A stretch of DNA of 64,000 bases from a virus (IMGVR_UViG_3300033120_000864:32001-96000); one strand, 5' to 3'; counted from the stretch's first letter, positions 713 to 24,538 are shown. Program-made: numbers and translations. Notes: generated from the sequence alone by a model not told the origin.

Positions 713-1714
713 ATGAAATTTACTACAAAAAACACAGAATCTCTGCACAATGAAATATACAAGTTAGTCAAACCAAAAGACATATTCATGTACTATTTCC
801 CCTTTGAAGAGAGGAAAATGTATAATTCTCCTTTCAGAAAAGATCCAGATCCAAGTTTCAATATAGTCAACAAAGACGGAAATTGGTTCTTTAATGATTT
901 TGGATATAGGGGTGGAGATGCTGTGAAATTTGTAGAATTATTGTTTGGTTTAAACTACTATGGTGCTTGCAACAAGATCAAAAAGGATTTTGGTTTGAGT
1001 GATGTTAAAATAGATGAGCTCCAACAAATTGATTCCTCTATCGAGATAGAGAAAGAAAAAAAGGAATTTAACATTACATTCACTCCAAGACCTTTTACAG
1101 ATCTTGAACTTGACTACTGGAAACAGTTTGATATTTCTAAAGCAGATTTAGAGAAAGAAGAGATTTTTGCTGCTAAGAAGCTTTGGTATAATGATAAAGA
1201 AGTTTATCTATCAGACAAAATTTTAAGATTTATATATAGATACACAAATGATGGAGAAAATTTTAAAAAAAAGATATATACTCCAGAGAGTGAAGATTTT
1301 AAGTGGATTGGTTCAATTTCTCAAAAACATATTGAAGGAATAAATCAATTACCATTTAAAAATGAATCTGTTATTATTCAAAAATCTAGAAAAGATAGAG
1401 TTGTAATGAAAAAAATACATGAAGATGTTATTAATACTCAAAATGAGAATTTTAAGTGTATAACACCAGAACTTACAAGGTTTTTAGATAAACATTATAG
1501 GTATAAGTATATTTTTTGGGATTCTGATTCTGTAGGAGTAGAAGAATGTAAAAAACTTAATGAAAAAGGTTATTTATACTTAAATATTCCTAAAAAGATT
1601 TATGAAGAAACAGGATGTAAAGATGTATCTGATATTATAAAACATTTTGGTACTGAAGAAGGATATGCTATAATAGCATTAGAAATGATGAAAAAAGGTA
1701 TCTCACTAAATTAA
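713..1714 (+). CDS. DNA primase (crAss-type, TOPRIM)
   Basis: SPFRKDPDPSF...FNDFG...GD N-terminus; TOPRIM FWDSDSVG and KDVSD motifs. Confidence 0.85.
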   Translation: MKFTTKNTESLHNEIYKLVKPKDIFMYYFPFEERKMYNSPFRKDPDPSFNIVNKDGNWFFNDFGYRGGDAVKFVELLFGLNYYGACNKIKKDFGLSDVKIDELQQIDSSIEIEKEKKEFNITFTPRPFTDLELDYWKQFDISKADLEKEEIFAAKKLWYNDKEVYLSDKILRFIYRYTNDGENFKKKIYTPESEDFKWIGSISQKHIEGINQLPFKNESVIIQKSRKDRVVMKKIHEDVINTQNENFKCITPELTRFLDKHYRYKYIFWDSDSVGVEECKKLNEKGYLYLNIPKKIYEETGCKDVSDIIKHFGTEEGYAIIALEMMKKGISLN

Positions 1715-2995: not shown

Positions 2996-3298
2996 ATGGA
3001 AGTAGATGAAGTGGCTCACACCTGTTCAATGGCAGAACTAGGAGGAGGCCTTTCTATTGATGATTTTACTTCTCTTGGAGAAAGAGATTTAGATGTCACT
3101 ATAAAAGAAGAAATTTTGTGTAGAAATATAAATATAGATCCTCGAAAGATAAGATGTATTTTATATAACACTAAATTTACCTTCTTACAAAGGCTTTATA
3201 TTCGTATCTTCCATGGTTTTAAGACTATAGGAAGTTATAAAAACAAAAATAATGAAAAGATTTTCATAACAATAAAAAAAGTAAAGTGGGAGGAATGA
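2996..3298 (+). CDS. Hypothetical protein, degenerate GNAT-like; paralog of 2402-2695
   Basis: TCSMAEL...ILYNTKF...Q...GFKTIGSY. Confidence 0.55.
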   Translation: MEVDEVAHTCSMAELGGGLSIDDFTSLGERDLDVTIKEEILCRNINIDPRKIRCILYNTKFTFLQRLYIRIFHGFKTIGSYKNKNNEKIFITIKKVKWEE

Positions 3299-3675
3299 TC
3301 AAACACAACGTAGCAGTATATGGTACACTTCTATCTGGACTATGGAATCATGGTTTATTAGAAGGTTCTAAGTTAATAACTCCAGGACAAACTGCAGAGA
3401 AAATGAAAATGACTGTTAATGTCATTCCTTATGTCTCAAAAAAAGAAGAGATTTCCAGTATTAAAGTGGAAGTATATGAGGTGAATGACTCTATTTTAAG
3501 TGGTTTAGATCACTTAGAAGGACATCCTACTTTTTACAAAAGAGAAAAGGTTGATGTACTAGGAGAAGATGGCAATATTCATAAATGCTGGATTTATTTA
3601 TGTGATGCTTCTACTGATAATATAGTAGAAGATGGTGACTATAAAGGATACAGAACAAAAAAAGGACTAAAATAA
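3295..3675 (+). CDS. Gamma-glutamylcyclotransferase (GGCT/AIG2-like)
   Basis: VAVYGTL...NH, EVYEV...LDHLEGHPTFYKR, WIY; ATG at 3295 overlaps upstream TGA. Confidence 0.9.
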   Translation: MIKHNVAVYGTLLSGLWNHGLLEGSKLITPGQTAEKMKMTVNVIPYVSKKEEISSIKVEVYEVNDSILSGLDHLEGHPTFYKREKVDVLGEDGNIHKCWIYLCDASTDNIVEDGDYKGYRTKKGLK

Positions 3676-4019
3676 TGACAGCACCAGTATTAGTAGAAGA
3701 AAAATTAGATGCAGCATTATTTAGGACTATTATTGATAAAGCTGCTGATAGGGGATTTATGTTTCCTAGAAAAAGCATATTCTTTCTAATAGTATATATT
3801 AGAAGTTGGCTTGAAAGTATAGATATTCATATATCTATAAGAAAAGTTACTATGGGTATTTACAGTGGCAGGTATCAATATGAAGTGAGAAAAGATGGAA
3901 GACCTGTTTATTTAACAAGTCAATATTATTTAACTTCAAAAGATGCTGAAAGAGCTGCTGTTCATGCTATATTGATAGATGAACACAAAAGTTTTTGGAA
4001 TGGTGAAAGAAAAGCTTAA
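3675..4019 (+). CDS. Hypothetical protein
   Basis: Translationally coupled ORF in the operon. Confidence 0.6.
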   Translation: MTAPVLVEEKLDAALFRTIIDKAADRGFMFPRKSIFFLIVYIRSWLESIDIHISIRKVTMGIYSGRYQYEVRKDGRPVYLTSQYYLTSKDAERAAVHAILIDEHKSFWNGERKA

Positions 4020-4695
4020 ACCTTATGTTGAGGAAAGATGGCTTAATTTTATAGCACCAATCTTAGAGTCTTCAAAAATATTACCAACTTTAACAGAAAG
4101 AAAGAGAGTTGCAACAATAGTACCCAAACAGGTAGATATGTTCAATTGCTTTAAGTACACTCCTTTTGATAAAGTTAAAGTGGTTATATTAGGTCAAACT
4201 CCATATCATAGTTTGGTAAATGGAGAACCTGAAGCTCATGGACTTGCTTTTAGTTATAGAAAAAAAGAATTAGATTTTCATGTTCCCCAAAGTTTGGCTG
4301 TCATCAGAAATGAGATAGAAACAGATGTGTATAATGGAGAAATGATAACATTTGATCCTAATCTAGAAAGATGGGCAAAACAAGGTGTTTTATTATTAAA
4401 TACAGCACTGACAACAGAGTTAGGAAGTAAAGATGCTCATATCGAGCTCTGGCAACCTTTCACTGAAGAAGTGATAAAGACATTAAATGAACTTAATTCT
4501 GGTTTGATATTTTGCCTATGGGGTAATCATGCTAAAGGATATGCTCATTTAATAAACAAAAACAATCATATTCTTTCTGCAGGACATCCTGCAAGTGAGT
4601 TATATGGAGGTAAAGGAAGTTTTTATGGATGTAAGCATTTTTCTGCTGTAAACAACATTTTAAAGGGATACAAACAAGAAGAAATAGAATGGTAA
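3979..4695 (+). CDS. ung: Family-1 uracil-DNA glycosylase homolog with catalytic Asp replaced by Thr
   Basis: VKVVILGQTPYH, AHGLAFS, WAKQGVLLLNTALT, FCLWG, GHPAS. Confidence 0.9.
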   Translation: MNTKVFGMVKEKLKPYVEERWLNFIAPILESSKILPTLTERKRVATIVPKQVDMFNCFKYTPFDKVKVVILGQTPYHSLVNGEPEAHGLAFSYRKKELDFHVPQSLAVIRNEIETDVYNGEMITFDPNLERWAKQGVLLLNTALTTELGSKDAHIELWQPFTEEVIKTLNELNSGLIFCLWGNHAKGYAHLINKNNHILSAGHPASELYGGKGSFYGCKHFSAVNNILKGYKQEEIEW

Positions 4696-5408
4696 CAGTT
4701 GAGAATAAAAGTGAAGCATTTACTAAAATATATTTACCTCATATACAAAAGACTATTGATAAAGTAAAAGATTTAGAAATCTTTAAAGATGCTAAATGGA
4801 ATATTCATCATTATTCTAATGTAGGAGGACTATATTTTACTAACAATGAAGATTACTTTAGTTGCAAAGTAAAATTATTTAATGCAATTGAAGATGATTC
4901 AATCTTTTCCAGATTTAACTCAGAATTAGGAGCTTTTACAATATCATGTTTTCCACATTGTTGTGGTGCATGTATTATAACAGCTGATTATGGTTCTTTT
5001 GGTAGATATGGTAAAGATAGAAAATGTGTAGAAGGAGAACCATTCCTTCTATTAGCAATGCATATTGCTGCAAGATATTATAGAAATGCTTTCAATGCAG
5101 ATAGTGAAAGAAATGCTAGTAATCTTAAAGCATATGAAAAATGTGGTTTTACAGTGCTAAATAAATTTGAAGGTAGGCATCAAGCTTCCTTATTTTTAGC
5201 AGGTACACCATTGGTACAAGATGAGAATTATTATTTAAACAAATTGATAAGCCTTTATGGAAAAGAAGAGAGTGGTAGGACAGAAACTCCTACACAGGAT
5301 CAGAATCAGGAGCAGGCATCCCAGCCATCAGAGCCTGAGGAAGTTATTAGCGAGAGTGAAAGTACCAACAGTTTTCAGGTTGGGATCTACAACGCCTTGC
5401 GAAGCTAA
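4689..5408 (+). CDS. GNAT-fold acyltransferase-like protein with CCG motif
   Basis: FPHCCGACI and GNAT-like RNASNLKAYEKCGFTVL; acidic tail overlaps next gene. Confidence 0.5.
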   Translation: MVTVENKSEAFTKIYLPHIQKTIDKVKDLEIFKDAKWNIHHYSNVGGLYFTNNEDYFSCKVKLFNAIEDDSIFSRFNSELGAFTISCFPHCCGACIITADYGSFGRYGKDRKCVEGEPFLLLAMHIAARYYRNAFNADSERNASNLKAYEKCGFTVLNKFEGRHQASLFLAGTPLVQDENYYLNKLISLYGKEESGRTETPTQDQNQEQASQPSEPEEVISESESTNSFQVGIYNALRS

Positions 5409-6057
5409 AGTAGAAATAAATTCTATTGAAGCTGTACAGAATAGTTCTTCAAAAATGAGAATGAAAAAATGTTTTGCAGAAGGAAAAGTTCGTACTGCTG
5501 AATACTTTACAGCTAAAGATGTTAAGGAATTAACAACTCAAGCTGCTAAGATAACAGGAGGATGGAAAAGCAAACTTGTTTGTAAAAGCTTTTTTGGTTC
5601 AAGAGGTAGAGGTAATTATCTTATAGATAATGAGGCTAAACTTATTGAGTGGACTAAGGGTAAGGACTTATCAGGATATGTATATGAAAGGTTTTATAAT
5701 TTTACAAAAGAATATAGACTTCATGTTACAGAAGATGGTTGTTTTTACACATGTAGAAAACTTCTTAAGGAGGGTACTCCTGAACAAAATAAATGGTATA
5801 GAAATGATTCCAACTGTGTTTGGATATTAGAAGAGAATCCCTCTTTCGATAAACCAAAGAATTGGAAAGATATAGAAACAGAATGTGTAAAAGCATTAAA
5901 AGCTGTAAAGCTTGATGTTGGTGCATGTGATGTAAAAGTTTCTAAAGATGGTGAGTTTATTGTGATTGAAATTAATTCTGCTCCTTCTTTAGGAGAAATA
6001 ACCTTACAAAAATATTTGGAGACTATACCTAAATTAGTTAACAAAAAAGTAGGGTAA
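5257..6057 (+). CDS. ATP-grasp amide/peptide ligase (RimK/YheC-like)
   Basis: K-SFFGSRGRG loop, KEYRLHV, GACDV, IVIEINSAPSL. Confidence 0.88.
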   Translation: MEKKRVVGQKLLHRIRIRSRHPSHQSLRKLLARVKVPTVFRLGSTTPCEAKVEINSIEAVQNSSSKMRMKKCFAEGKVRTAEYFTAKDVKELTTQAAKITGGWKSKLVCKSFFGSRGRGNYLIDNEAKLIEWTKGKDLSGYVYERFYNFTKEYRLHVTEDGCFYTCRKLLKEGTPEQNKWYRNDSNCVWILEENPSFDKPKNWKDIETECVKALKAVKLDVGACDVKVSKDGEFIVIEINSAPSLGEITLQKYLETIPKLVNKKVG

Positions 6058-6753
6058 ATGGGGCATAGAGTTCACGCAGATTTATATAACAAAGATGGTA
6101 AAGTAATTACTTCTGTAAGAAATGGAGCTTGTGATAGTGGAATAAATCCATTTAGACATCATGCAGCAGTAAAATGGGTAAGATATATCGAAGTAAAGAA
6201 TTGTAAATACTCAGCTAAAGAAGTTAAAGCTTGGGTAGATTTTTGTACAAGATGTGGTTTTAAATCTTATCTTAGCCTAAAAGAACAGGAAGTAAAAACA
6301 GGATATGGTGGAAGAGCTGATTCCAAATGTTATAGTATCACTCTACTGAGAAAAGATTATAAAAATGATTTACATCTTTTTATAGCTGGTACTTTAATAA
6401 GAATGATTAGTTATGATATATATCCTTGTTACCAGGAAATTCCAAAGGTTGTTTTTAATATGAAAGATTTAAAGAAGGCAACTTCTTTAGAAAAACTCAT
6501 ATTAGCACATTATGGAATAAAGCAAAATGTACATGGATACCATGGATTATTCTATACAGGAGCTGGTTATAATGTTTGGAAATTACAAAAGTTTTCAGAT
6601 TTAAAATTAACTGGTGGTAGTATTAATGCAGTATTTCAGGTTCCTTTAAAAGGTATTACTAATAAAAAAGTAAGAGCTTTAATGGATACTAAAAAGTACA
6701 AAGAAGCTTATGCATTATTAAAATCAAAAGAAAAAGAAGATGCAAAAGGTTGA
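6058..6753 (+). CDS. Cys-containing hypothetical protein; tandem paralog of 6740-7420
   Basis: Shared KDGKV...CD...KWVRY...CKY...TRCGFK...CY...KDY blocks. Confidence 0.75.
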   Translation: MGHRVHADLYNKDGKVITSVRNGACDSGINPFRHHAAVKWVRYIEVKNCKYSAKEVKAWVDFCTRCGFKSYLSLKEQEVKTGYGGRADSKCYSITLLRKDYKNDLHLFIAGTLIRMISYDIYPCYQEIPKVVFNMKDLKKATSLEKLILAHYGIKQNVHGYHGLFYTGAGYNVWKLQKFSDLKLTGGSINAVFQVPLKGITNKKVRALMDTKKYKEAYALLKSKEKEDAKG

Positions 6754-7420
6754 TTTAGACATAGTTGACAAAGATGGAAAAGTTTTAAGAGAAATCAGAT
6801 ATGATGTTTGTGATGCTAGAGCTAGACTTTCTCAATATCCATTAGGATATAAATGGGTCAGATATGTTATAATCAAAGACTGTAAGTATAACGATGATGA
6901 AATTAGGAGATGGTGTAATTTTGTTACTAGATGTGGCTTCAAATGTCATTTTAGTAATGAAATAGTTAGACCACAAGTGTTTTCTAGTTTTGGAAAAAAT
7001 GAAGCAACAGATTGTTATACTATTACATTATATCCTAAAGATTATAATAATAACGATATGCATTTCTTAATAGGAAATACAGTTGTTAGAATGATTAATT
7101 TTGATGAATGTTTAGAAAACATTCCTAAAATAGTTGAAGAGATTAACATAAGAATGAATCCTCTTCAAAAATTATTGTTAGCTTGTTATACTCTACCATC
7201 TTCAAATCATGCACCTGCTAATAAAAATTTATATAATTATGATATACATAGATATGAAACTCGTCCTTATAAACTACTAAAAACTAAAGAGTTTGTAATA
7301 AAGGATGGAGTACAGAAATCAATGTCTATACCATTATTAGGTAAAAATTTAGAAACAGTGATGAAATCAATAAACGAAAAAGATTACAAAACAGCGTACA
7401 ATTATTTAAATGGAAAGTAA
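6740..7420 (+). CDS. Cys-containing hypothetical protein; tandem paralog of 6058-6753
   Basis: Same blocks as 6058-6753. Confidence 0.75.
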   Translation: MQKVDLDIVDKDGKVLREIRYDVCDARARLSQYPLGYKWVRYVIIKDCKYNDDEIRRWCNFVTRCGFKCHFSNEIVRPQVFSSFGKNEATDCYTITLYPKDYNNNDMHFLIGNTVVRMINFDECLENIPKIVEEINIRMNPLQKLLLACYTLPSSNHAPANKNLYNYDIHRYETRPYKLLKTKEFVIKDGVQKSMSIPLLGKNLETVMKSINEKDYKTAYNYLNGK

Positions 7421-8048
7421 GAAAGTATATGTAGTGGGAGGAAGTAATGGCTACGCAAATTGGCTAATTGAAATGGGTATGGAACTAACAAAAGTCCCAG
7501 AAGAAGCTGATATTGCAATGTTCACAGGAGGTGCAGATATCAACCCTGCTATATATGGAGAAAAACCAGGTAGTAGAACATACTTCTATGATACTAGAGA
7601 TAGAATGGAATTAGAAGCCTATAGAACCTTTAGGGAGCTCGAAACTCCTATGATAGGTATCTGTAGAGGTGGACAACTTTTTACTGCCTTAAATGGTCAT
7701 AAATTAGTTCAACATAGTAGCCATCCATACAGCCACAATGTGGTAACAAACAGAGGAGAACTGTACAGTATAAACTCAATGCATCACCAACAATTTCTTC
7801 TTGATGAAGATAACAAGAATTATGAGTTGATTGCATGGGCTGAAAACATATCAGATGTCCATTTAGATGGAGATGATGTGGACTATAATTTCCCAAAAAC
7901 ATACAAAGAACCAGAAGTGGTGTATTATCCAGAAACAATGTGTTTAGCAATACAATGTCATCCTGAAGCAATTCATAATGTCAGGACAATGGATTACTTC
8001 AAGAGTCTGGTAAATCAATATTTAATAAAAGAAAAAATAACAGCTTAA
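7410..8048 (+). CDS. Class I glutamine amidotransferase / peptidase C26 (gamma-glutamyl hydrolase-like)
   Basis: FTGGADINPAIYG, RD..E, GICRGGQ nucleophile elbow, NSMHHQ, QCHPE. Confidence 0.92.
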   Translation: MESKKVYVVGGSNGYANWLIEMGMELTKVPEEADIAMFTGGADINPAIYGEKPGSRTYFYDTRDRMELEAYRTFRELETPMIGICRGGQLFTALNGHKLVQHSSHPYSHNVVTNRGELYSINSMHHQQFLLDEDNKNYELIAWAENISDVHLDGDDVDYNFPKTYKEPEVVYYPETMCLAIQCHPEAIHNVRTMDYFKSLVNQYLIKEKITA

Positions 8049-8050
8049 AA

Positions 8051-9919
8051 ATGGATTTATTTGAAATAGGAAATTATATAATAGGTTTCGTACTACTTAT
8101 GTATGCCTTTAATACCACATTACAAATGATGTTTGGATTGACACCAGACAGAAGTAATTTTTATTGTGGTTTATATGGCTTTAATGGAGCCAAAGCTCCA
8201 AATGAGGACAAACTCAAAATATTAGGTATGTATAACCTACCAAGAGGAGATGATTCTTGTGGAATTTATTGGGATGGTAAACTCTACAAAGGAGTAAACC
8301 TTGAATCAAATGTACTTCGTTTCTATGAAAAAAATACATTTAAGCCAATAAAGGAAAAATTCACTGTCATTGGACATAATAGAAAATCAACAGTTGGAAA
8401 GAATGAAATTGACAATTGCCATCCCTTTGGATATTGGTTAGATGGGGATACATCTAAGATTCCTTATGCAGTTGGTGCTCATAATGGTACAATTAGAAAT
8501 AGAGAAGAACTAAAAAAGAAGTATGATGCAACTCCACATGTTGTGGATTCTGCAGAAATACTTGAAATCATTATTAATAGCAAATCTAAACCTAAAAATA
8601 TAAGTGTTCTTGAAGAATATGAAGGTTTTGGTGCATTTATGTGGAGTTTTCCTGAAACAGATGATTTATATATCTTTAGAGGTAAATCTGAACAAGGTGA
8701 AGACCTTACAGGAGAAAGACCTTTATTCTATTGGAAGAAGGCTGGAGAAGATATGGTATATATTTCTTCAATAAAAGACTCTCTTTTAGCTATATGTGAT
8801 GATGATGAAAAAATAATAAGAGAGTTTGAACCAAACAGAATACATCATATTAAAGCAGGTAAGATGATGACTTACAAAAAAGAATATGATAGATCTGCAA
8901 GGAATAAGACTACTACATATGCTTCTAGTAGTTCATCTTCTACAACAAGTTCTGTTGCAACAACTTCAAATGTAGGAAATGGTATTGCCACCACATTTGG
9001 ACCAAAGAAAAAGGGAGCTTCGGAGATCTTCCTAAATTTCCCGAAGTCAGCTCTAGAAAAGTACGAAAAAAAAAGTCATCCAAGGGAAAACAATGGGGAC
9101 GCTTTTCTAGAAACTGAACCTTATATTGATGTTAATGAACTTATTAGAATAACTAATAATAAGGACTTTAAAGGCAAAATCATTTATTGTGGAGGACAGT
9201 ATAGAAAGAATGGTCACATCTTAGGTGCTAAATTGAAAGAAGGTGAAGTTCTTAAGATTGATGCTAATGGATATTTAGCAGGTCATAAGAACTATGATAA
9301 TAAGACTAGCAAAGAATTCTATTTCTGGAATGGTTGGACATGTCTTTCTCATGAAAGTATGACAAAGGTGATAAAAATGTTTAAGGATGGAAGTATATTT
9401 GATGAGCATGTTAAAACAAGATTTTGCTTATATAAATTACAACCTTTCTTTGATTGTATCATCTTTAATCCTGGTGTTCCTAATGGACATTATTCTATGG
9501 GAAGACAAATGGGAGGCAATCCTCAACCTTATCATACTGGTAAGTTTGAACCTTTATTTAATCAAGGCAAAATTTATTTCTTTAATAATGGATATTTTAA
9601 ATCTGTAGTTCTTCAATTAGAACCATTTATGAAATTAGATCCTAGTAAAGCATTAGTAGAAATAAGTGCAGCTGAGATAGAAAAAAAGGAAAAGAAGGAA
9701 GCATCTGAAGCTGAGAAAGAAACATTACAGGCTTTTTATAACGATGCTATGGAAAACCTTAATGTTAGCAAAGGAATGTTTGAAGAACCAGTGGAGTTCA
9801 AATCAAACGAAGCAACAAGAATAAAAATGTACAAATGGCTTAATGAGAGCTACATTTATTTGAAGGATCATTATGAACATTTGACAAAGAAAAAATTACC
9901 TGAAGAAATATTATATTGA
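8051..9919 (+). CDS. Class II (Ntn) glutamine amidotransferase with N-terminal propeptide and large C-terminal extension
   Basis: CGLYGF at residue 39, RGDDSCG, GHNRKSTVG, NCHPF, HNGTI, VDS. Confidence 0.85.
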   Translation: MDLFEIGNYIIGFVLLMYAFNTTLQMMFGLTPDRSNFYCGLYGFNGAKAPNEDKLKILGMYNLPRGDDSCGIYWDGKLYKGVNLESNVLRFYEKNTFKPIKEKFTVIGHNRKSTVGKNEIDNCHPFGYWLDGDTSKIPYAVGAHNGTIRNREELKKKYDATPHVVDSAEILEIIINSKSKPKNISVLEEYEGFGAFMWSFPETDDLYIFRGKSEQGEDLTGERPLFYWKKAGEDMVYISSIKDSLLAICDDDEKIIREFEPNRIHHIKAGKMMTYKKEYDRSARNKTTTYASSSSSSTTSSVATTSNVGNGIATTFGPKKKGASEIFLNFPKSALEKYEKKSHPRENNGDAFLETEPYIDVNELIRITNNKDFKGKIIYCGGQYRKNGHILGAKLKEGEVLKIDANGYLAGHKNYDNKTSKEFYFWNGWTCLSHESMTKVIKMFKDGSIFDEHVKTRFCLYKLQPFFDCIIFNPGVPNGHYSMGRQMGGNPQPYHTGKFEPLFNQGKIYFFNNGYFKSVVLQLEPFMKLDPSKALVEISAAEIEKKEKKEASEAEKETLQAFYNDAMENLNVSKGMFEEPVEFKSNEATRIKMYKWLNESYIYLKDHYEHLTKKKLPEEILY

Positions 9920-11505
9920 AAATGATTGAAATTAGTGGAAAATTATTAATGGTAACTACTATAACAGGTGATACAGTGCTAAGAAAAGACTGTATACAAA
10001 ATAAAGAGACAGGAAAGTATTATCAAAAGAATGTATCAGCTTTTTTAGTAGAGCTTGAAGATGGTAGACAAAAGTGGCAGAGGATAGATAATGGAAGAGT
10101 GGCCTTCAATTGGGATAGAAAAGAATGGGATCTCATTAAAAGACTTGAAGTGTCAGGCTTAACCAAGGGTATCTTTGAAGCTGGAAAACCAGCTGGCTAT
10201 TTTACCATGAATGATGATACAGTACTTCTGAAAGAGAAGATAGGAACCTCACAAGGAACTCCTTGTATCAATGCTAAAGTGGCTACAGAATCTGGATATA
10301 TTCCTTCTATCTGGGATGATTGTTTCTATAATAAGAGAAATCTTAATAGAGATGATTTAGAGTATTTAAGAACTCCTCAGATAGTAAAGTATAGGAATCT
10401 TGACTTTAGGTATAATGCTGCTGCTGATAACAGCTCATTTCTTAAAATAAGAGGTTTTTATGATAAGTTTCAACCTGCTGTACCTATGAGAACTCAAGAA
10501 GTATCAAAATTACTTTTTGGAAAATCATTTGGTATAGAATTTGAAACAAGAGGTGGTACAATTCCAGAAAAATTCCTTGGTAAACTTGGTATAGTTCCAT
10601 TGAAAGATGGATCTTTAAGACTTCCTGATGGAAAGGAGCCTTATGAATATACTACAGTGCCATTTTATGGTGCTAAAGGATTGGAAACTGTTAAATACAT
10701 TTGTGAAGAATTAAATAAAAGATGTATATTTGATGATAATTGCTCTTTACATGTGCACTTAGGAAATGTAAAATTTGATAAATTGTCTATTATTGCATAT
10801 TATATTCTTATTCAAAATATTCAAGAGGAATTATATTCTATATTTCCTCAGTATAAGAGAGATGAAGTGAAGTATTTAAATAAGCCAAAAGCTTATAATG
10901 CTCCTCTTCCAAATATAGGTCTATTAACAAATAGTATCTATAAGAAAAAGTATACATCACATCATGAATTTAATGCTGAAGTAGACTCTTCTTTCTCTAA
11001 AATTATAGAATATTTAACTAAGGGAGGTACTAAAGAATGGCCAGGTTGGGATTCTGATAGACCAACACATCCTCTTGGTAATACAAAATGGAATCTTAAC
11101 AGATACTTTCTTGTAAATATAAATAGTTTAGTATTTAGTTCTACACGTACTATTGAATTTAGGCTTTCAAGTCCAACATTTAATTTTACTAAAGTAACTA
11201 ACTGGCTTTTTATATGTGCTGCTATAATTACCTATGCTGAAAAGTATAGTAAAGAAATCATAAGTAGAAAAGCAAAACCAACTCTGAAGGATATTCTTTC
11301 AGAACTGAAAACACACTTTGGTTATTATGAGTTTGAAGATGTGGTAGGTAGTGAAATATCTTCATATCTGTGTGACTATGTTGACTATAGAAAAGAACTA
11401 ATTGCAAAAGCCACAAAAAATGGTGATGTATTAGCTAATAATATAGAATTCAAAGCAGACAAAGACTTCAGATTCCAGAGTAGAAACATGTCAACTATCT
11501 ACTAA
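9916..11505 (+). CDS. Putative amidoligase (COOH-NH2 ligase, glutamine-synthetase fold)
   Basis: FGIEFET, DGSL, YEYTT, CSLHVH, RY..VN, TIEFR. Confidence 0.85.
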   Translation: MKMIEISGKLLMVTTITGDTVLRKDCIQNKETGKYYQKNVSAFLVELEDGRQKWQRIDNGRVAFNWDRKEWDLIKRLEVSGLTKGIFEAGKPAGYFTMNDDTVLLKEKIGTSQGTPCINAKVATESGYIPSIWDDCFYNKRNLNRDDLEYLRTPQIVKYRNLDFRYNAAADNSSFLKIRGFYDKFQPAVPMRTQEVSKLLFGKSFGIEFETRGGTIPEKFLGKLGIVPLKDGSLRLPDGKEPYEYTTVPFYGAKGLETVKYICEELNKRCIFDDNCSLHVHLGNVKFDKLSIIAYYILIQNIQEELYSIFPQYKRDEVKYLNKPKAYNAPLPNIGLLTNSIYKKKYTSHHEFNAEVDSSFSKIIEYLTKGGTKEWPGWDSDRPTHPLGNTKWNLNRYFLVNINSLVFSSTRTIEFRLSSPTFNFTKVTNWLFICAAIITYAEKYSKEIISRKAKPTLKDILSELKTHFGYYEFEDVVGSEISSYLCDYVDYRKELIAKATKNGDVLANNIEFKADKDFRFQSRNMSTIY

Positions 11506-14396: not shown

Positions 14397-16349
14397 TTGG
14401 ATTTTAAATTAGATGCTGGCTTTATAAAGCAGTATGAGAGTAAGAAAGTGAATTTTGGTTTTAATGGGCTTGGTGAGATAACTTACTATAGAACCTATTC
14501 AAGACTAAAAGAAGATGGAACAAATGAAAAGTGGTTTGAGACAGTCGCAAGAGTTGTCAATGGTATATACAATATACAGAAAACCCATATTGAAAAGAAT
14601 GATTTAGGATGGAATGAGAGAAAGGCTCAGGTCTCTGCACAGGAAATGTATGATAGGATATTTACTTTTAAATTCCTACCACCTGGCAGAGGACTTTGGG
14701 CATGTGGAACAGACATTATAAAGAAGGGACTTGGAGCAGCAATGAATAATTGTGGATTTATCAGTACAGAAAATATTGATAAAGACTTTGCTAAGCCTTT
14801 CTGTTTTATGATGGATATGTCCATGTTAGGAGTTGGTATTGGATTTGATTTAAAAGGTGAAGGAAAAATAGTTGTGGCTGAAAAGTCACCTATGTGTAAT
14901 ACAATTATATATACAATTCCTGATACAAGAGAAGGATGGGTGGAGAGCTTAAAACTTCTTCTTGATTCATACCTTAGTTCTGATTGTAATAATGTAGATT
15001 TTGACTATTCTTTAGTCAGAAAAGCAGGAGAACCAATCAAGACTTTTGGTGGAATCTCATCAGGCCCAGAACCTTTAATCAAACTTCATCAACAAATAAG
15101 AGAAAAACTAAATGGCATTGCAGGAAAAGCAATTACAGGAAGAGTGATTGCTGATATTATGAATATGGTGGGTGTATGTGTTGTTTCTGGTAATGTCAGA
15201 AGAAGTGCACAAATCATGTTTGGTGATTCAAATAACAATGAATATTTAGATCTCAAAAACTACAATGTAAATCCTGAAAGAGCTAACTATGGATGGACTT
15301 CTAATAATAGTGTATTCTGTGATGAACATACAGATTATTTAGGAGCTGCACAAAGAACTGCTATAAATGGAGAACCTGGATATTTCTGGCTTAATAATGC
15401 TAGAAAATATGGTAGGTTTGTAGATCCAGTGAATAATAAGGATTATAAAGCAATGGGATGTAATCCTTGTGCTGAACAAACCTTAGAAAACTATGAATTA
15501 TGTTGCTTAGTAGAAACATTCCCAGATAACCATGATTCTCTTGAGGATTATCTTAAGACACTGAAATATGCTTACTTGTATGGTAAGTCTGTCACTCTAT
15601 TAAAAACACACTGGAAGGAAACTAACAAGGTGTTATTAAAGAATAGAAGAATAGGACTTAGTCAAACAGGTATTGCTCAGTTTCTAGAAAGACATTCCCT
15701 TGAAGAATATAGGGTTTGGTGTAATGAAGGATATAAAACAGTACAGAAATATGATGAAATATATTCTAACTGGTTTTGTATTCCTAAGTCTATTAAAACA
15801 ACATCAATTAAACCTTCAGGATCTATTAGCCTTTTAGCAGGAGCCACTCCAGGTATGCATTATCCAGAGAATAATTATTACATTAGAAGAATAAGAATAG
15901 GAAAGAATTCTCCTATATTGAAAGCTTGTCAAGAAGCTGGATATGTAGTGGAAGTTGATGCTTATGACTCTTCTTCATATTGTGTAGAAATTCCTGTAGA
16001 AATTAATTGTCGTACTGTGGATGATGTTTCAATATGGGAACAAGTACAACTTGCAGCTTTCATCCAAAATTGGTGGGCTGACAATCAAGTGTCATGTACT
16101 GTTACCTTCAAACCAGAAGAGAAGAAAGAAATCTTACCCATACTAAAATATGGAAAGTACAATCTAAAAGCTATTAGCTTCTTGCCAAAAGCAGAAGTTG
16201 GAGCTTACAAACAAATGCCATATGAAGCCATAACTCGTCAGAGATATGAGGAAATAGTAAGAGCAATAACCCCTTTGAATATGGAGAATATTTCACAAGA
16301 CTCTAAACCAGAGCTTTATTGTGATAGTGTTAGCTGCGAAATAAAATAA
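14397..16349 (+). CDS. nrdJ: Class II (B12-dependent, monomeric RTPR-type) ribonucleotide reductase
   Basis: RTYSR, PPGRGLW, NNC, GNVRRSA, GCNPCAEQ, TSIKPSG, DNQVSCT, C-terminal CDSVSC. Confidence 0.95.
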   Translation: MDFKLDAGFIKQYESKKVNFGFNGLGEITYYRTYSRLKEDGTNEKWFETVARVVNGIYNIQKTHIEKNDLGWNERKAQVSAQEMYDRIFTFKFLPPGRGLWACGTDIIKKGLGAAMNNCGFISTENIDKDFAKPFCFMMDMSMLGVGIGFDLKGEGKIVVAEKSPMCNTIIYTIPDTREGWVESLKLLLDSYLSSDCNNVDFDYSLVRKAGEPIKTFGGISSGPEPLIKLHQQIREKLNGIAGKAITGRVIADIMNMVGVCVVSGNVRRSAQIMFGDSNNNEYLDLKNYNVNPERANYGWTSNNSVFCDEHTDYLGAAQRTAINGEPGYFWLNNARKYGRFVDPVNNKDYKAMGCNPCAEQTLENYELCCLVETFPDNHDSLEDYLKTLKYAYLYGKSVTLLKTHWKETNKVLLKNRRIGLSQTGIAQFLERHSLEEYRVWCNEGYKTVQKYDEIYSNWFCIPKSIKTTSIKPSGSISLLAGATPGMHYPENNYYIRRIRIGKNSPILKACQEAGYVVEVDAYDSSSYCVEIPVEINCRTVDDVSIWEQVQLAAFIQNWWADNQVSCTVTFKPEEKKEILPILKYGKYNLKAISFLPKAEVGAYKQMPYEAITRQRYEEIVRAITPLNMENISQDSKPELYCDSVSCEIK

Positions 16350-16350
16350 G

Positions 16351-16689
16351 ATGCAAAAAGACAAAGTACTAGAGCTAGTTGACCAAAAAGTTAATCAATA
16401 CAAGATCATTAAGAAGATGCAAGAGCAGAATGATCCTAAATATAATCTCATTAAGGCTTGTGAAGAACTAGCTGAGCTTTCTGAAAAACTACTTAAGAAG
16501 GTAGTTAAAGAAGGTACTGATAAGTGTCCCTCAGATGATGATATTATAGAAGAAATAGGAGATGTTCAGATCAGACTTGATCTTTTGGGCCTTATCTTTG
16601 GACAAGATAAAGTTGAGAAAAGAATACAATATAAACTATCAAAATTTGAAGGTTATATGAAAGAAGGAAAGTTTGGGGGAAGAATATAA
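16351..16689 (+). CDS. MazG-like NTP pyrophosphohydrolase
   Basis: EELAEL...IIEEIGDV. Confidence 0.7.
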   Translation: MQKDKVLELVDQKVNQYKIIKKMQEQNDPKYNLIKACEELAELSEKLLKKVVKEGTDKCPSDDDIIEEIGDVQIRLDLLGLIFGQDKVEKRIQYKLSKFEGYMKEGKFGGRI

Positions 16690-16945
16690 GAAACTTGCTC
16701 AAAAAACCAAAGAATTCTGTGATGAAGAATCATTTAGTGAAGAGGAAACTTTTATAATGAGTGGTGATGAATTAAATGATATGAAATTCAACTATTACTA
16801 TGAAGGTATGGAGGCTATGCTTAAGGACCCTGATTTATCAGAGTTCTTAGCAGATACCATTCAATACAAAAAATGTACTAGTAGAATGGGTTTTATGAGA
16901 GAAGTAGAATTAGCTTTAGAAACTTACTTAAAACAAACACGATGA
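16673..16945 (+). CDS. Hypothetical acidic protein
   Basis: ORF coupled to its neighbours. Confidence 0.5.
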   Translation: MGEEYKKLAQKTKEFCDEESFSEEETFIMSGDELNDMKFNYYYEGMEAMLKDPDLSEFLADTIQYKKCTSRMGFMREVELALETYLKQTR

Positions 16946-17136
16946 TGAAAAAGAAACAAATAGTAAAGTTTCTAAAAACTTTAGGAATTGATTATAATGG
17001 ATCTTACAAAATAAGTCCAGGAGAATTTCTAACTATGTATGATAAGTTTTTAGAAAAGGAAAGTAAGAAGAAAGTAAAGGTTAAAAAAACCAATACTAAA
17101 GCTAAAGAGGTAAATGAATATCTCTATTGGGTTTAA
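16942..17136 (+). CDS. Hypothetical basic protein
   Basis: ATGA overlap with upstream gene. Confidence 0.5.
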   Translation: MMKKKQIVKFLKTLGIDYNGSYKISPGEFLTMYDKFLEKESKKKVKVKKTNTKAKEVNEYLYWV

Positions 17137-18158: not shown

Positions 18159-18354
18159 AGAAGATAAGAAGCTTTTGAAAGCTTACATGAAAGGTTTTAA
18201 TGATTATAGTGTAGATATTCCTAAGTTTAAGTATTTTAATCAAAGAATGCAAAAAGCTTATAATTTAGGAGTACAACATTTTATAATAGGAGATGATGTG
18301 AGAAGTGTAGATTACCTTTCAGATGAGCAAATTTTAAAACTAATAAAAGAATGA
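18124..18354 (+). CDS. Hypothetical protein (likely ATG start 18151)
   Basis: ATGA coupling to next gene. Confidence 0.55.
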   Translation: MNILDIYFGMNEEDKKLLKAYMKGFNDYSVDIPKFKYFNQRMQKAYNLGVQHFIIGDDVRSVDYLSDEQILKLIKE

Positions 18355-19052
18355 AAATACTAGCAATTAGTGATACTCATGGTCAACATAAGAATTTTGC
18401 TAAAGAATACTTTGAAGGAATAGATATGATAATTCATGCAGGAGATGAAAGTAACTTTAGGGAATTAGCTTTTAATGAAAGAGAGTGGTTTGACTTTCTT
18501 GAATGGTATAGCGAACTCAATGTTAAATACAAAGTATTAATTGCAGGAAATCATTCAGCTTATTTAAGTAAATTTGGTAGGAGAATTAAGGAAGATTTAT
18601 ATAGGGATAATAATATAGTTTATCTTGAACATGAATCAACAAAAATAGAAGGAATTAACATTTTTGGTAGTCCTTATACTCCAACTTTTGGTCAATGGCA
18701 TTTTATGAAAGATAGAAGTAAATTAGATGATTATTGGAAGCAAGTACCTGATGATACAGATATACTTGTTACACATGGTCCACCAAAAACTATTTTAGAT
18801 TTATCTTTATCTAGAGATCGTGAGTTAGAGTTTTGTGGTGATGCTGCATTACTTAGACACATAACAGAAAGAATTAAACCAGCTTATAGTATATTTGGTC
18901 ACATTCATAATGTGGAGAATATAGTAAATGCAGGAACAAAAACAATGGCAGGATTAGACACTACATTTATGAATGTTTCTTGTGTTACAGATGGTAAGTT
19001 TAACATGGGACTTAGTTCTCATGGACAAAAATTTGAATATAATAAACAATAA
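18351..19052 (+). CDS. Calcineurin-like metallophosphoesterase
   Basis: SDTHG, HAGD, AGNH, THGPP, FGHIH. Confidence 0.92.
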   Translation: MKILAISDTHGQHKNFAKEYFEGIDMIIHAGDESNFRELAFNEREWFDFLEWYSELNVKYKVLIAGNHSAYLSKFGRRIKEDLYRDNNIVYLEHESTKIEGINIFGSPYTPTFGQWHFMKDRSKLDDYWKQVPDDTDILVTHGPPKTILDLSLSRDRELEFCGDAALLRHITERIKPAYSIFGHIHNVENIVNAGTKTMAGLDTTFMNVSCVTDGKFNMGLSSHGQKFEYNKQ

Positions 19053-19057
19053 AAAGT

Positions 19058-19879
19058 TTGTTAGATACTAAAGAAGAAAAAGGCATTAGATTTGATGATG
19101 GTAAGGTCAGACATGATCTCCTCTCATCTAATGCAATCAATGAATTATCAAAAGTACTCACTTTTGGAGCTCAAAAATATGCTGCTCATAATTGGAGAAA
19201 GGGTATGGCTTGGAGTAGAGTGATTGGTAGTTTAAAAAGGCATTTAAATGCTATTGAAAGAGGAGAAGATTTTGATCATGAAACAGGAGTGTTACATGCA
19301 GCACATGTTATGTGTAATGCAATGTTCCTTACTGATTATTACAAAATTTATCCTGAAGGAGATGACAGACCTCATGAATATCTTACCTACAAAAGAATAG
19401 GACTTGATATTGATGAAGTGTTATGTGATTTTACACAAGGATGGGGAGATTTATACAATTCTAATCCAAGACCAAATTCATGGTACTTTGATAGACAAAT
19501 GTTAGAGAAGTTTAAAGAATTAGAAGAAAAGGGAGAATTGGAATCATTCTATCTCAATCTTAAGCCTAAAACTTTAGCTAAAGATCTTCCATTTGAACCT
19601 CATTGTTATGTAACATCAAGACCAGTTCCAACAGCAGTAACTGAAAAATGGTTGGACATGCATGGTTTTCCTACAAGAAAAGTTATAACTGTGGATATTA
19701 ATACATCTAAAGTTGATGTATTAAAGCAGGAAAATGTGGATATATTTGTTGATGATAGATATGAGAACTTTGTAGAATTAAATAAGGCTGGTATTTGTAC
19801 CTTCTTATTTGATGCAGCTCATAATCACAAATATGAAGTGGGTTACAAAAGAATTAAGAGTTTAAAAGAATTAGTGTAA
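19058..19879 (+). CDS. dATP/dGTP diphosphohydrolase (DUF5664-like) fused to HAD 5'-nucleotidase
   Basis: DDGK..HDLL, VLTFGAQKY..HNW.KG, D.ETG..H.AH..CNAMFL; then GLDIDEV, VTSR, FVDD. Confidence 0.85.
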   Translation: MLDTKEEKGIRFDDGKVRHDLLSSNAINELSKVLTFGAQKYAAHNWRKGMAWSRVIGSLKRHLNAIERGEDFDHETGVLHAAHVMCNAMFLTDYYKIYPEGDDRPHEYLTYKRIGLDIDEVLCDFTQGWGDLYNSNPRPNSWYFDRQMLEKFKELEEKGELESFYLNLKPKTLAKDLPFEPHCYVTSRPVPTAVTEKWLDMHGFPTRKVITVDINTSKVDVLKQENVDIFVDDRYENFVELNKAGICTFLFDAAHNHKYEVGYKRIKSLKELV

Positions 19880-19922
19880 TACAATTTAAAGAAGAAGATT
19901 ATTTGTTAATATTTATTAATAG

Positions 19923-19954
19923 TTTGTTATTCTAATTTATTTTTATTATCTTTG
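19923..19954 (+). promoter_or_regulatory. Bacteroidota consensus promoter for the second GIY-YIG gene
   Basis: TTTG(19923-19926)-N20-TATCTTTG(19947-19954). Confidence 0.8.
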
Positions 19955-19960
19955 TATTAT

Positions 19961-20584
19961 ATGAATACAGGTATATATACAATAACTTCTATTATTGATA
20001 ATAAAGTATATGTTGGACATGCTAAAAATATTAAACTGCGATGGAATGGACATATAAGTCGCTTAAGAAATAATAGACATGAAAATAAACATCTTCAAAG
20101 TGCTTTTAATCTCTATAAAGAAAATAATTTTAAGTTTGAAATATTATGGGAATGTGAAGAAAAATATTTATATTCAGAAGAACATTATTGGTGTAATTTA
20201 TTAAACGTCAATAATCCAAAATTTGGATATAATATAGCTCAAACTAATCCTAATGGTACATGGGGATTTTCAGAAGAAACTAGAAAAAAAATGTCTGAAA
20301 GTAGAAAAAATACTACTATGTCTGAAATTAGTAAAAAAAAATTATCTATAACCATGAGTAGAAAAAGGGCTAATGGAGAAATAAAACTTTCTGAACAAGG
20401 ACGTGAAAATTTAAGATTAGCTCAAAAAAATAGAGTTAAAAAAATTTTAAATATAAAAACAGGAGAAATTTTTAATTCTGGTAAAGAATTAGCAGAATGT
20501 TTAAATGTACCATATCAAACAATAAATTCTAGAATGCATAGAAAAAGTAAAATATTTCAAAATTATAAATATGTAGAAAAATGA
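19961..20584 (+). mobile_element. Free-standing GIY-YIG homing endonuclease (NUMOD3-like repeats)
   Basis: TGIYTI...VYVG...R..H, SEETRKKMSES; ATG 19961 preferred since TTG 19952 lies within the promoter. Confidence 0.9.
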
Positions 20585-21693
20585 CTTTTAAAGAAGAAGA
20601 TTTAGATGTAATATACAAAGTTAAGGTTGGAAGTCATGCTTATGGAACTAATATTCCTGAAAGTGATGAAGACTTTAAAATGATATATTTACAAAAACCC
20701 ATGGATGTTTTAAACTATGGGTATCAAGAGCAAGTAAATCTTACTAAAGATTGTACAGCTTATGAACTCAAGAGATTTATAGAACTATGTTGTACAGGAA
20801 ATCCTACAATGTTAGAACTTCTATATTCTCCTGAAGATTGTGTAGTATATAAACATCCTATTTTTGATCTAATTCTTGAAAACAAAGAGAAATTTCTTTC
20901 TAAATCTTGTAGATGGAGTTTTGGTGGATATGCTGTTTCTCAAATAGAAAAAGCTAAGGGGCTTAATAAGAAAATAAATTGGGAAAAAGAAAAAATAACC
21001 AGAAAAACTCCTATTGATTTTTGCTATGTTGTACTAGATCCTTGGACTAAGGTTCAAGCAAAAGAAGGTAGACAAGTAAGTATCAAACAAGGTGTATATC
21101 CTTTAAAAGATTGGCTTAAAAGAAAACACTTATCCTCAAAAGATGTAGTGCTAACTAAATTAAACCATTCTAAAGAAGGATATCAACTTTATCAATTTAA
21201 AGGTAGAGGAATAGAAGTGGATGGATCTAATAATCTTAGAACTTCAGAAACTCCTAAAAATATACTACCTATAGCTACAGTACTCTTTAATCCTGATGTC
21301 TATTCAAGGCATTGTAGGGAATATAAAGAGTATCAGGAATGGATGAAAGAAAGAAATGTTCAACGATATGTAGATATCAATGAACATGGACAAAAGATAG
21401 ATGGTAAAAATATGCTACATTGTGTTAGACTTCTGGAAACAGGAATAGAGCTAGCCAAAGAACATAAAATAAAGGTAAGAAGAGAAAATGCTGAATATCT
21501 TATATCAATAAGAAAAGGTAAAGTAGATTTAAATACATTATTAGAAAATTGTCAAAGTGCACTCACTGATTTGGACAAAGCTTATAATGAATCTACTCTT
21601 CCTGATAAAGCAGATAGAGCATTCTTTTTAACATTATTACCAGTAATAAGAAAACAATATCAAATTTCAAAAGGAACAAAAGATGGACTTTAA
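20581..21693 (+). CDS. Pol-beta-family nucleotidyltransferase (RlaP/YcgL-like)
   Basis: GSHAYGTN..ESDED, GNPTMLELL, K...HCVRLL, YLISIRKG. Confidence 0.85.
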   Translation: MTFKEEDLDVIYKVKVGSHAYGTNIPESDEDFKMIYLQKPMDVLNYGYQEQVNLTKDCTAYELKRFIELCCTGNPTMLELLYSPEDCVVYKHPIFDLILENKEKFLSKSCRWSFGGYAVSQIEKAKGLNKKINWEKEKITRKTPIDFCYVVLDPWTKVQAKEGRQVSIKQGVYPLKDWLKRKHLSSKDVVLTKLNHSKEGYQLYQFKGRGIEVDGSNNLRTSETPKNILPIATVLFNPDVYSRHCREYKEYQEWMKERNVQRYVDINEHGQKIDGKNMLHCVRLLETGIELAKEHKIKVRRENAEYLISIRKGKVDLNTLLENCQSALTDLDKAYNESTLPDKADRAFFLTLLPVIRKQYQISKGTKDGL

Positions 21694-22222
21694 AGGTGAT
21701 ATAATCATTACAGATCCTTGTTATATAATGGGGAAAGATAGTGATTGGGATAAGTGTGGGAATGGAGATAATATGGAAGCCTTAGGGATAACACATTATC
21801 TCTGTGCTGACACAGAATATGGAGATTGGGGATGTGTTACAATAAAAGATGTTCCTAATGCTCCATATATTTTAGGTAAACTTAGTATGAATTATGCTGA
21901 ACTATGGGATAAATCCAATAGTATAAAAAAGGATGAGACAGCTATTAAAACCTTAACAGAAAAAAGAGATAAGATAATTAATGAAAGTGGAATTATTCTA
22001 GGAAGATTTTGTGCAGATGCAGGCTTAGTTGCTGTGTTTTTGTTAGATGAAGTACTAAAATATAATCCAAAGTTTGATTATCATATAACAAGGCCTCATA
22101 CCACAACTCTTATCAAAGACTTTGATGGTGATATTGAAATAACACACAGAGGAGATGATAATGAAGTAAGTGTTATAGGTGAAGGAAATATTAGCTTCTA
22201 TACAACACAAACAGAATTATAA
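21683..22222 (+). CDS. Conserved phage hypothetical protein
   Basis: GDIIITDPCYI, TEYGDW, FCADAGLVAVF. Confidence 0.65.
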   Translation: MDFKGDIIITDPCYIMGKDSDWDKCGNGDNMEALGITHYLCADTEYGDWGCVTIKDVPNAPYILGKLSMNYAELWDKSNSIKKDETAIKTLTEKRDKIINESGIILGRFCADAGLVAVFLLDEVLKYNPKFDYHITRPHTTTLIKDFDGDIEITHRGDDNEVSVIGEGNISFYTTQTEL

Positions 22223-23598: not shown

Positions 23599-24538
23599 AG
23601 TATTAGTTGGAGTTAGTGGTTCAGGTAAAACTACCTGGGCTACTAAATTCATAAACGAGAACCCTAAATGGGTTAGAGTATCAAGAGATGATATTAGAAG
23701 ACAACTAGTGGGAACGTTAGATTAAACCTACTATAAAAGAAAGGATTTAAACTCTCTTGAGAAGCAAGTAACGGCTTTATTGTTCTCTAACATTAGACAC
23801 TTATTACAACAAGAGTTTAACATAATTGTAGACAATACTCACTTAAAAGAAAGTTATATTAATGAACTCGTAGTAGAGTTTAATCATTTAGCTGATATTG
23901 AAATTGAGTTTATAGGAATTGAAGAATCTCTAGCTACACTTAAGAGGAGAATAGAAGAAAGAGAAGACAAAAGAGTATGGTGGAAAAAGTTATTTTCTTC
24001 TGAAGTAAACACAAGTTATTTGAATAAACAATTCAAAGAATTTAATAGTTTACATAAGAAGGGAATACAAACTAAATTCCCTATTTTAGTCAGAAAAGTA
24101 AATCAGAATTACAAGTTACCTAATACAATAATTTGTGATTTAGATGGAACTCTTGCTTTATTTGGAGATAGAAATCCTTATGATAGGGATTTTGAAAATG
24201 ATATGTTTAGTCCACCAGTATTATTTGTATTAAAGAGTTGGATTCATGATAATCCAGATTGTAAGATACATTTTTTTAGTGGTAGAGCTGAGAAAGAAAG
24301 AGGAGAGACTACAAGATTCCTCTTAAGAGAATTTACTGAAGATCAGTTTATTCTTGAAATGAGGAAAAATAAAGATGTTAGAAATGACTCTTTAGTCAAG
24401 GAAGATATGTTTAACACTTATATTAAAGATAAGTTGTTTGTTCACTTTGTGATTGATGATAGATTGAGAGTGTGTAGGTTATGGAACAAATTAGGCTTAT
24501 TTTTATTTAATGTTAACCAAGATTTAAGTGAATTTTAA
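23582..24538 (+). pseudogene. pseT: Polynucleotide 5'-kinase/3'-phosphatase (T4 PseT-like) interrupted by in-frame TAA at 23723-23725
   Basis: ATG 23582 gives GVSGSGKTT and SRDDIR, then TAA, then the same frame continues into IVDNTH, DLDGTL, SGR, DDR. Confidence 0.85.

Follow-up and report, generated by a model that had tools for sequence, protein, structure and literature searches.

A homolog of family-1 uracil-DNA glycosylase without the catalytic aspartate in the replication module of a crAss-like phage genome

The DNA analyzed here, which we call the window, is a 64,000-nucleotide stretch (IMGVR_UViG_3300033120_000864:32001-96000) of a 129.8-kb IMG/VR virus record that is rated complete. 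The G+C content is 30%, and giant open reading frames (ORFs) of 1,947, 3,870, and 1,991 amino acids (aa) lie on the minus strand. The gene of interest encodes a homolog of uracil-DNA glycosylase (UDG) and is the sole UDG-family gene across the 129.8-kb genome. Among isolated phages, related UDGs are found in crAss-like Bacteroides phages, in Cellulophaga phage phi14:2, and in the Flavobacterium Fpv phages, and the source is, as judged from its genes, an environmental crAss-like phage. A search for near-identical DNA in isolated phages found none. Three sequencing runs contained the window or part of it, with nearly all of the sampled words present in two of the three; no RNA runs were among the matches listed in this search.

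The features of the locus are given below by window position. A1 is an alignment of 18 sequences, which are those of the clade to which the window protein belongs (the Asp-less clade) and of its sister clade.

713-1714, plus strand: DnaG-type primase, which anchors the replication module on its upstream side (phrog_12622, 1.7e-29)
Between the primase and the next gene: GIY-YIG endonuclease
3286-3675, plus strand: gamma-glutamyl cyclotransferase (GGACT; Pfam, 9.5e-21; phrog_2520)
3675-4019, plus strand: 114-aa ORF that overlaps the start of the UDG homolog, weakly conserved in Asp-less loci
3979-4695, plus strand: family-1 UNG homolog without the catalytic Asp (Pfam, PHROG, PDB phmmer, AF2, and Foldseek)
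4198-4200, plus strand: codon ACT for Thr74, which aligns with the catalytic Asp of Coxiella and E. coli UNG
4240-4251, plus strand: GLAF (G88 to F91), unchanged in 18 of the 18 sequences of A1
4390-4401, plus strand: LLLN (L138 to N141), with N141 invariant in A1
4585-4605, plus strand: HPASELY, an altered Leu-intercalation loop with His203 kept and a one-residue insertion
4689-5408, plus strand: GNAT-fold ORF (239 aa) that overlaps the stop of the UDG homolog (motifs, AF2, and Foldseek)
5257-11505, plus strand: rest of the amide-ligase locus, encoding an ATP-grasp protein (R2K/RimK-like), two unnamed paralogs, a C26/class-I GATase, a class-II GATase, and Amidoligase_2 (Pfam/PHROG)

Genes for an HNH protein and a PD-(D/E)XK nuclease follow Amidoligase_2. 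The initial annotation had described the UDG homolog as embedded in a ligase locus, and this description holds: GGACT lies upstream, and the GNAT-like, ATP-grasp, C26 GATase, GATase-II, and Amidoligase_2 genes lie downstream. The 114-aa ORF gave no match to Pfam or PHROG profiles, and its BLAST matches were confined to three loci (L006, L005, and L001; E values of 1e-5 to 1e-10). The GNAT-fold ORF has conserved FPxCCG...IIT and N..Y.K..F motifs, with FPxCCG invariant. Its AF2 model had a pLDDT of 70, and all of the top Foldseek matches were GNAT acetyltransferases (E value of about 1e-4); the tail (residues 194 to 239) is low complexity, acidic/Gln rich, and modeled at a pLDDT of <50. In the relative L001, a LAGLIDADG homing endonuclease gene (15216-15974) divides Amidoligase_2 (14556-17089) into two ORFs, and in L003 a DnaB-like gene is similarly followed by a LAGLIDADG gene. 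Some 14 kb before the main ligase locus, on its upstream side, the window's genome has a second amide-ligase gene; it encodes a phiEco32-type COOH-NH2 ligase (PF14395; phrog_3815, 3e-51) at genome G000:C1:21654-22505 and is followed by an unnamed 303-aa ORF.

The ORF at 3979-4695 is stop-free and encodes 238 aa, with VILGQTPYH, AHGLAFSY, GVLLLNTAL, and GHPASELYGGKGSFYG in its translation. By comparison with the N termini of homologs, the real start is likely Met8, at nucleotide 4000. The protein matches the Pfam UDG profile (PF03167) at 7e-10, which is above the cut-off, and it matches phrog_12143 (4e-51), a PHROG annotated as function unknown. A phmmer search of the PDB matched 43 family-1 UNG sequences with solved structures, led by Coxiella Ung (1.3e-41), with E. 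coli Ung at 3e-40. The AF2 model, made with A1 as the input, had a mean pLDDT of 90.1, and its best Foldseek matches in the PDB were all family-1 UNGs, with TM scores of 0.75 to 0.89. Homology and the modeled alpha/beta fold extend over the whole domain, at about 40% identity to the E. coli, human, and Coxiella (3TR7) enzymes, and the Gln-x-Pro-Tyr, GLAF, LLLN, and His-Pro motifs as well as the Pro-Ser and Gly loops are shared with them. The phage protein differs from these enzymes in having Thr in place of the catalytic Asp (Ser or Ala elsewhere in its clade), in its Leu loop, HPASELY, which has one extra residue and a Glu, and in short insertions after PYH and before the Pro-Ser loop. By homology and predicted fold it is a member of family-1 UNG, yet it fails the family's defining catalytic motif: motif A, GQDPYH with its water-activating Asp, is GQTPYH here. 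On these sequence grounds, UNG-like pseudo-glycosylase is a more fitting name for it than uracil-DNA glycosylase.

The Asp of family-1 UNG positions the attacking water and stabilizes the oxocarbenium ion; its replacement costs rate, not binding, and activity in Asp mutants falls by about 3 to 4 orders of magnitude. A HMMER alignment to the Coxiella and E. coli UNGs put Thr74 opposite E. coli D64 and HPA-SELY opposite HPS-PLSA, with E. coli His187 retained. Both of the substitutions that had been reported from the sequence, GQTPYH for GQDPYH and HPASELY for HPSPLS, were therefore reproduced. Thr74 occupies the position of human D145 and His203 that of E. coli H187. The GLAF Phe corresponds to E. 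coli F77, which stacks on uracil, and the LLLN Asn to E. coli N123, which reads uracil O4/N3. The initial annotation had also held that the pocket Tyr, the GLAF Phe, and the LLLN Asn are retained, and they are: F91 and N141 are invariant in A1, and Tyr76 is nearly so, as is characteristic of a uracil-specific pocket. His203-Pro204 is likewise invariant in A1, and in the HPASELY loop the Leu and the Tyr are each available as a wedge.

The Thr74 codon, ACT, is two substitutions away from GAT or GAC, which had been the reason for considering a read error unlikely. The homologs bear this out. Among the best 120 matches in a collection of 5.8 billion proteins, the 10 closest (53 to 65% identity, from independent metagenomes) all lack the Asp: eight have Ser, one (the window protein) has Thr, and one has Ala. 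Because the Asp is missing from 10 of 10 proteins of independent origin, a read error or a private mutation is ruled out. The altered loop goes with the missing Asp in this group, HPx[STV]E[LV] being found in all 10 proteins and HPA[STV]EL in nine. The next group of homologs (43 to 48% identity) has GQDPY or GMDPY plus HPSP. In a maximum-likelihood tree, the 10 proteins (P0001 to P0010) were monophyletic and sister to a GQDPY clade, and in A1 the Asp is present in eight of eight members of the sister clade. This distribution points to a single ancestral loss of the Asp in a small clade of environmental crAss-like phages. The Ser codons are TCA or TCT in two genomes and AGT in two others, and ACT (Thr) is a one-step intermediate between the TCN and AGY classes. 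Because Ser is encoded by both codon classes and Ala occurs once, a hydroxyl at the site is dispensable; the site tolerates small uncharged residues (Ser, Thr, and Ala).

Over both clades, 46 columns of A1 are invariant, including P75 of motif A, G88-L-A-F-S-Y93, P103, S105, L106, Q135-G-V137, N141, W181, G182, H203, and P204; P103, S105, and L106 belong to the Pro-Ser DNA loop. Only 12 columns separate the clades cleanly, and of these just two, the Asp position and Glu207 in the loop, fall in known active-site motifs; at Q51, the residue of the Asp-less clade is that of E. coli Ung. Pairwise dN/dS was 0.15 to 0.55 in the Asp-less clade versus 0.12 to 0.83 in the sister clade (NG86), values that are rough because dS is near saturation. 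The similarity of these ranges indicates that the gene is maintained by selection. In the alignment, the pocket and the DNA-binding surface are kept as strictly as they are in the Asp-retaining relatives.

Loss of the Asp is not confined to this clade. In the 264 closest of roughly 10,500 homologs, 30 have another residue at the site (Ser in 10, Glu in 6, Asn in 5, Thr in 3, and Ala, Gly, and Cys in 2 each), and some of these 30 also lack the His. In P0132, P0142, P0194, P0209, P0212, and phi14:2, the His and residues of the pocket are gone; P0142 is GQTPY without the His. The protein of phi14:2, a cultured crAss-like phage, is gp053 (L009 8857-9567); it is annotated as a uracil-DNA glycosylase and has GKEPY for GQDPY, a D-to-E change, and AEDPIQ where the catalytic His would be. 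It too may be inactive as a UNG, to go by these motifs. These six proteins show that the UDG fold can persist in phages without the pocket, and they would be in keeping with a window protein that lacks base recognition and either binds DNA in a purely architectural capacity or is decaying. We consider this improbable. The pocket and the His are conserved in the Asp-less clade over 53 to 65% identity, dN/dS is not above that of the sister clade, and the reading frame is intact in every clade member.

A stronger case can be made for the main rival of the interpretation favored below, namely, that the protein is still a working uracil-DNA glycosylase, slower or differently tuned, that acts via His203 and the DNA phosphates or via another carboxylate, e.g., Glu207. 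Selection for catalysis would also preserve the pocket, His203, and the DNA loops, and UDG families 2, 4, and 5 are known to function without this Asp. In addition, Glu207 is invariant in the Asp-less clade and is Gln in the closest sister loops of the same length (P0018 and P0121). However, the drop in activity of family-1 Asp mutants weighs against this explanation, and the interchangeability of Ser, Thr, and Ala means that the site has gained no new catalytic group. Nor is the loop Glu likely to have arisen as compensation, since HPAxE-type loops are present in many phage UDGs that retain the Asp (Fpv1, P0059, P0090, L075, and L090-94). We therefore regard continued glycosylase activity as possible although somewhat unlikely.

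The initial annotation had proposed that the protein might be a neofunctionalized enzyme linked to the neighboring ligases. In such a scheme it would be a base-flipping module that, with the amide-ligase genes, presents a base or attaches the product in DNA hypermodification. The arrangement of the locus is suggestive: the start and the stop of the UDG gene both overlap flanking genes of the locus, and the UDG gene lies beside the same ligase genes, in two gene orders, in the window clade, in the sister clade, and in phi14:2, where they are found between the primase and the UDG. The gene order of the window is common to four other Asp-less loci (L001, L002/L017, L005, and L006). However, the synteny extends to L003 and L004, which retain the Asp, and GQDPY-type UDGs adjoin ATP-grasp, GATase-II, and Amidoligase_2 genes in these two and in L018-L022, L025, L042, L047, L058, L060, L065, and L085, so that no fewer than 14 loci have a canonical UDG in this position. 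Conversely, Asp-less UDGs exist without the cluster. Independent D-to-E changes without it were found in L070 and L079, and a D-to-G change was found in L097, where the UDG lies in a DnaB/AAA_24/UDG module; all three are replication modules of the crAss-like kind. When the loss of the Asp was compared with the presence of the cluster, as had been suggested, it tracked the phylogenetic clade and not the cluster, and the proposed link to the ligases was not upheld. The position in the ligase locus seems to be inherited synteny rather than a coupling specific to the loss of the Asp. By the same comparison, adjacency to the peptide/amide-ligase genes predates that loss and does not explain it.

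The one neighbor that does follow the loss of the Asp is the GNAT-like gene, which is directly downstream of the UDG only in Asp-less loci. This correlation has no statistical weight because it stems from a single evolutionary event. The sister clade has in the same slot an ORF of about 240 aa, beginning ...GKHNGWAFQFLN, that is unrelated to the GNAT-fold ORF (hhalign probability, 0.65%), and on this basis the GNAT-like ORF was rejected as an ancestral partner of the UDG.

The identity of the base that would be bound also bears on hypermodification. The pocket Tyr of family-1 UNG excludes 5-substituted uracils (5-methyl). Because this Tyr, which in the canonical pocket bars 5-substituents, is retained, a reader of modified bases is unlikely. 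The uracil-specific Asn141 and the nucleotide genes of the genome also count against such a reader. ThyX, the presence of which had been noted previously, was found again as a ThyX-type thymidylate synthase at window 28668-29711 (phrog_85, 4e-61), and a thymidylate-kinase-like P-loop gene follows it at 29711-30259; this is the only P-loop kinase seen near ThyX, and its match is to thymidylate kinase (phrog_2107). Against the Pfam Thy1 profile, the ThyX protein matches in permuted order, with profile positions 60 to 167 near the N terminus and 12 to 61 near the C terminus, both below the Pfam cut-off. Of the earlier suggestion that the protein reads uracil or a modified base or serves as a replication cofactor, the uracil reader and the cofactor thus remain in agreement with the pocket, the dN/dS values, and the module, and the modified-base reader does not.

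The precedent that had been invoked for a repurposed glycosylase, the amino acid:DNA transferases, does not carry over. These enzymes have a predicted helix-hairpin-helix (HhH) glycosylase-like fold and act on 5-hmdU after phosphorylation (PMC8989533). The modeled UDG homolog has the alpha/beta fold of UDGs and not the HhH fold, which is unrelated to it. What the window protein has in common with aGPT-Pplase and the amino acid:DNA transferases goes no further than the concept of a glycosylase-like protein working on DNA bases without excision; those enzymes have no homology to UDG, carry an active-site thiolate, and need 5-hmdU and a 5-hmU DNA kinase (PMC8989533). The canonical Asp-retaining UDGs in the same position, the Asp-less UDGs without the cluster, the variable nature of the region (see below), the uracil-specific pocket, ThyX and the thymidylate-kinase-like gene, the HhH fold of the known transferases, and the single event behind the GNAT correlation together leave an enzyme of DNA hypermodification very unlikely, in our judgment.

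A profile search of the complete genome found no dUTPase (PF00692). One complete Asp-retaining relative (G004) also has none, and a partial one (G003) has one. A link between loss of the dUTPase and loss of the Asp was thus rejected, G004 being likewise without the gene. Elsewhere in the window (19058-19879), a dATP/dGTP diphosphohydrolase N-terminal domain is fused to an NT5C 5'-deoxynucleotidase, and the same fusion is found in L003.

The order primase ... UDG ... PD-(D/E)XK ... RNR is common to crAss001, phi14:2, and Fpv1, and almost every related locus has a primase gene upstream of its UDG gene. The UDGs of these three phages (gp74 in crAss001 and gp053 in phi14:2) are only 29 to 35% identical to the window protein, and they share its place downstream of the primase and upstream of the PD-(D/E)XK nuclease and RNR. 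In phi14:2 the GGACT, ATP-grasp, GATase-II, and amidoligase genes also adjoin the UDG. The proteins of crAss001 and Fpv1 differ from the window protein in keeping GQDPY, and that of phi14:2 differs in having GKEPY and in having lost the His. In crAss001 a ThiF/metalloprotease island is found in the place of the ligase genes, and in many relatives nothing is inserted at the primase–PD-(D/E)XK site. The ThiF/metalloprotease island, the phi14:2 ligases, and the empty sites show that the region is a variable island in a conserved replication module. The UDG, by its distribution across these genomes, is part of the conserved module.

DnaB-like, AAA_24, and PolB genes lie upstream in the window's genome. 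The PolB is divergent (G000:C1:24709-26511, which is L014:6710-8512); it has DxxSLYPS, NSxYG, and TDG motifs, matches phrog_1252, and finds its closest counterpart in the polymerase of an uncultured crAss-like phage. Searches of the genome with the Pfam models for PolA and PolB gave no match, and the polymerase was found via PHROGs and motifs only; it had no sequence match in the PDB. In the relatives L021, L022, and L025, an insertion of about 1 kb breaks up the PolB homolog after residue 448 and before residue 449. The UDG homolog is thus a gene within the replication module of a virus that has its own B-family polymerase, as would be expected of a replisome accessory.

Tentatively, and with slightly less than even confidence, we favor the interpretation that the UDG homolog is a non-excising or very slow uracil-DNA binder that acts in the phage replication module. 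An otherwise near-canonical family-1 UNG would have been deprived of its catalytic carboxylate a single time, in the common ancestor of the clade, and would since have been under purifying selection. With the fold, the DNA-pinching loops, and the Gln, Tyr, Phe, Asn, and His of the uracil pocket intact, the protein would still flip uracil from DNA and bind it. Hydrolysis of the glycosidic bond would be nil or orders of magnitude slower, as with engineered Asp mutants of UNG; because His203, the main leaving-group catalyst, is kept, residual excision is possible. We infer that such a protein could serve as a non-excising uracil-DNA-binding or DNA-binding accessory of a replication machinery that includes the divergent PolB, the primase, and the DnaB-like helicase. 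Possible modes of action are tethering, scanning, or stalling at template uracil and the occupation of uracil so that host Ung cannot nick the replicating phage DNA. Shielding of this kind would have to be stoichiometric, and a purely architectural role in the replisome would not, alone, demand an invariant uracil pocket. More specific proposals, namely, that the protein is a natural uracil reader at the fork, for sensing or for shielding from host Ung, or that the carboxylate has moved to Glu207 in a new active-site geometry, we consider doubtful.

Uracil-DNA binding without excision has been obtained in the laboratory. Catalytically dead human UNG (D145N/H268N) keeps its specific binding to uracil-DNA and serves as a sensor (PMC4756853), which is the behavior proposed here for the phage protein. 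The human protein similarly has its Asp removed, but it is a laboratory double mutant, whereas the phage protein keeps its His and is the product of natural selection. The poxvirus D4/E4 proteins are also viral family-1 UDGs, and D4 is a processivity subunit of the holoenzyme of a B-family DNA polymerase. Vaccinia virus D4 reportedly supports replication even when it has no glycosylase activity (De Silva and Moss 2003, cited in PMC10253040), and catalytic-site D4 mutants supported replication in one study and suppressed it in another (PMC10253040). In contrast to the phage protein, D4 is an active enzyme with its catalytic residues in place, and it is bridged to the polymerase by A20.

Among phages, the N4-like PolA proteins have a UDG domain without catalytic residues that has been proposed to be a processivity module (PMC10201439), and the UDG domain of SP15-like polymerases is active (PMC13697223). 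The N4-like module resembles the window protein in being a phage UDG fold in a replicase in which the catalytic residues are not conserved. It differs in belonging to family 4, in being fused in cis to an A-family polymerase, and in having active-site elements deleted; the window protein is free-standing and its pocket is intact. Inactive UDG-fold modules in phage replicases are therefore already known, but they are of a different family and are polymerase fused. In the literature searched, we found no description of a natural, conserved clade of family-1 UNGs without the Asp.

Few DNA repair enzymes are understood as well as family-1 UNG, the Asp of which is regarded as obligatory. Here, a naturally selected lineage across divergent phages has dropped only the Asp and kept the parts that find and hold uracil. 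The clade would offer a natural test of the share of the Asp in catalysis and would supply a ready-made uracil-DNA-binding protein. It also bears on the question of what a UDG does in the replication modules of so many phages and large DNA viruses, whether it is kept for repair or for a role independent of catalysis.

Several other gene sets were noticed in the genome. No tRNA genes were found in the window; the ends of the genome (G000:C1:1-60 and 129748-129807) resemble tRNA genes, with T-arm-like GGTTCAACTCC and GGTTCGATTCC. An RNA-repair set at window 18351-24538 encodes a metallophosphoesterase, an RlaP nucleotidyltransferase, an RNA ligase, and a PNKP-type kinase/phosphatase, and a GIY-YIG gene is inserted in it (19952-20584). 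Finally, an NAD-salvage set at genome G000:C1:16186-20325 encodes a PRPP synthetase-like protein, an ADP-ribosylglycohydrolase-like protein, and a nicotinamide phosphoribosyltransferase (phrog_448, 3e-157), which suggests a counter-defense against NAD depletion.
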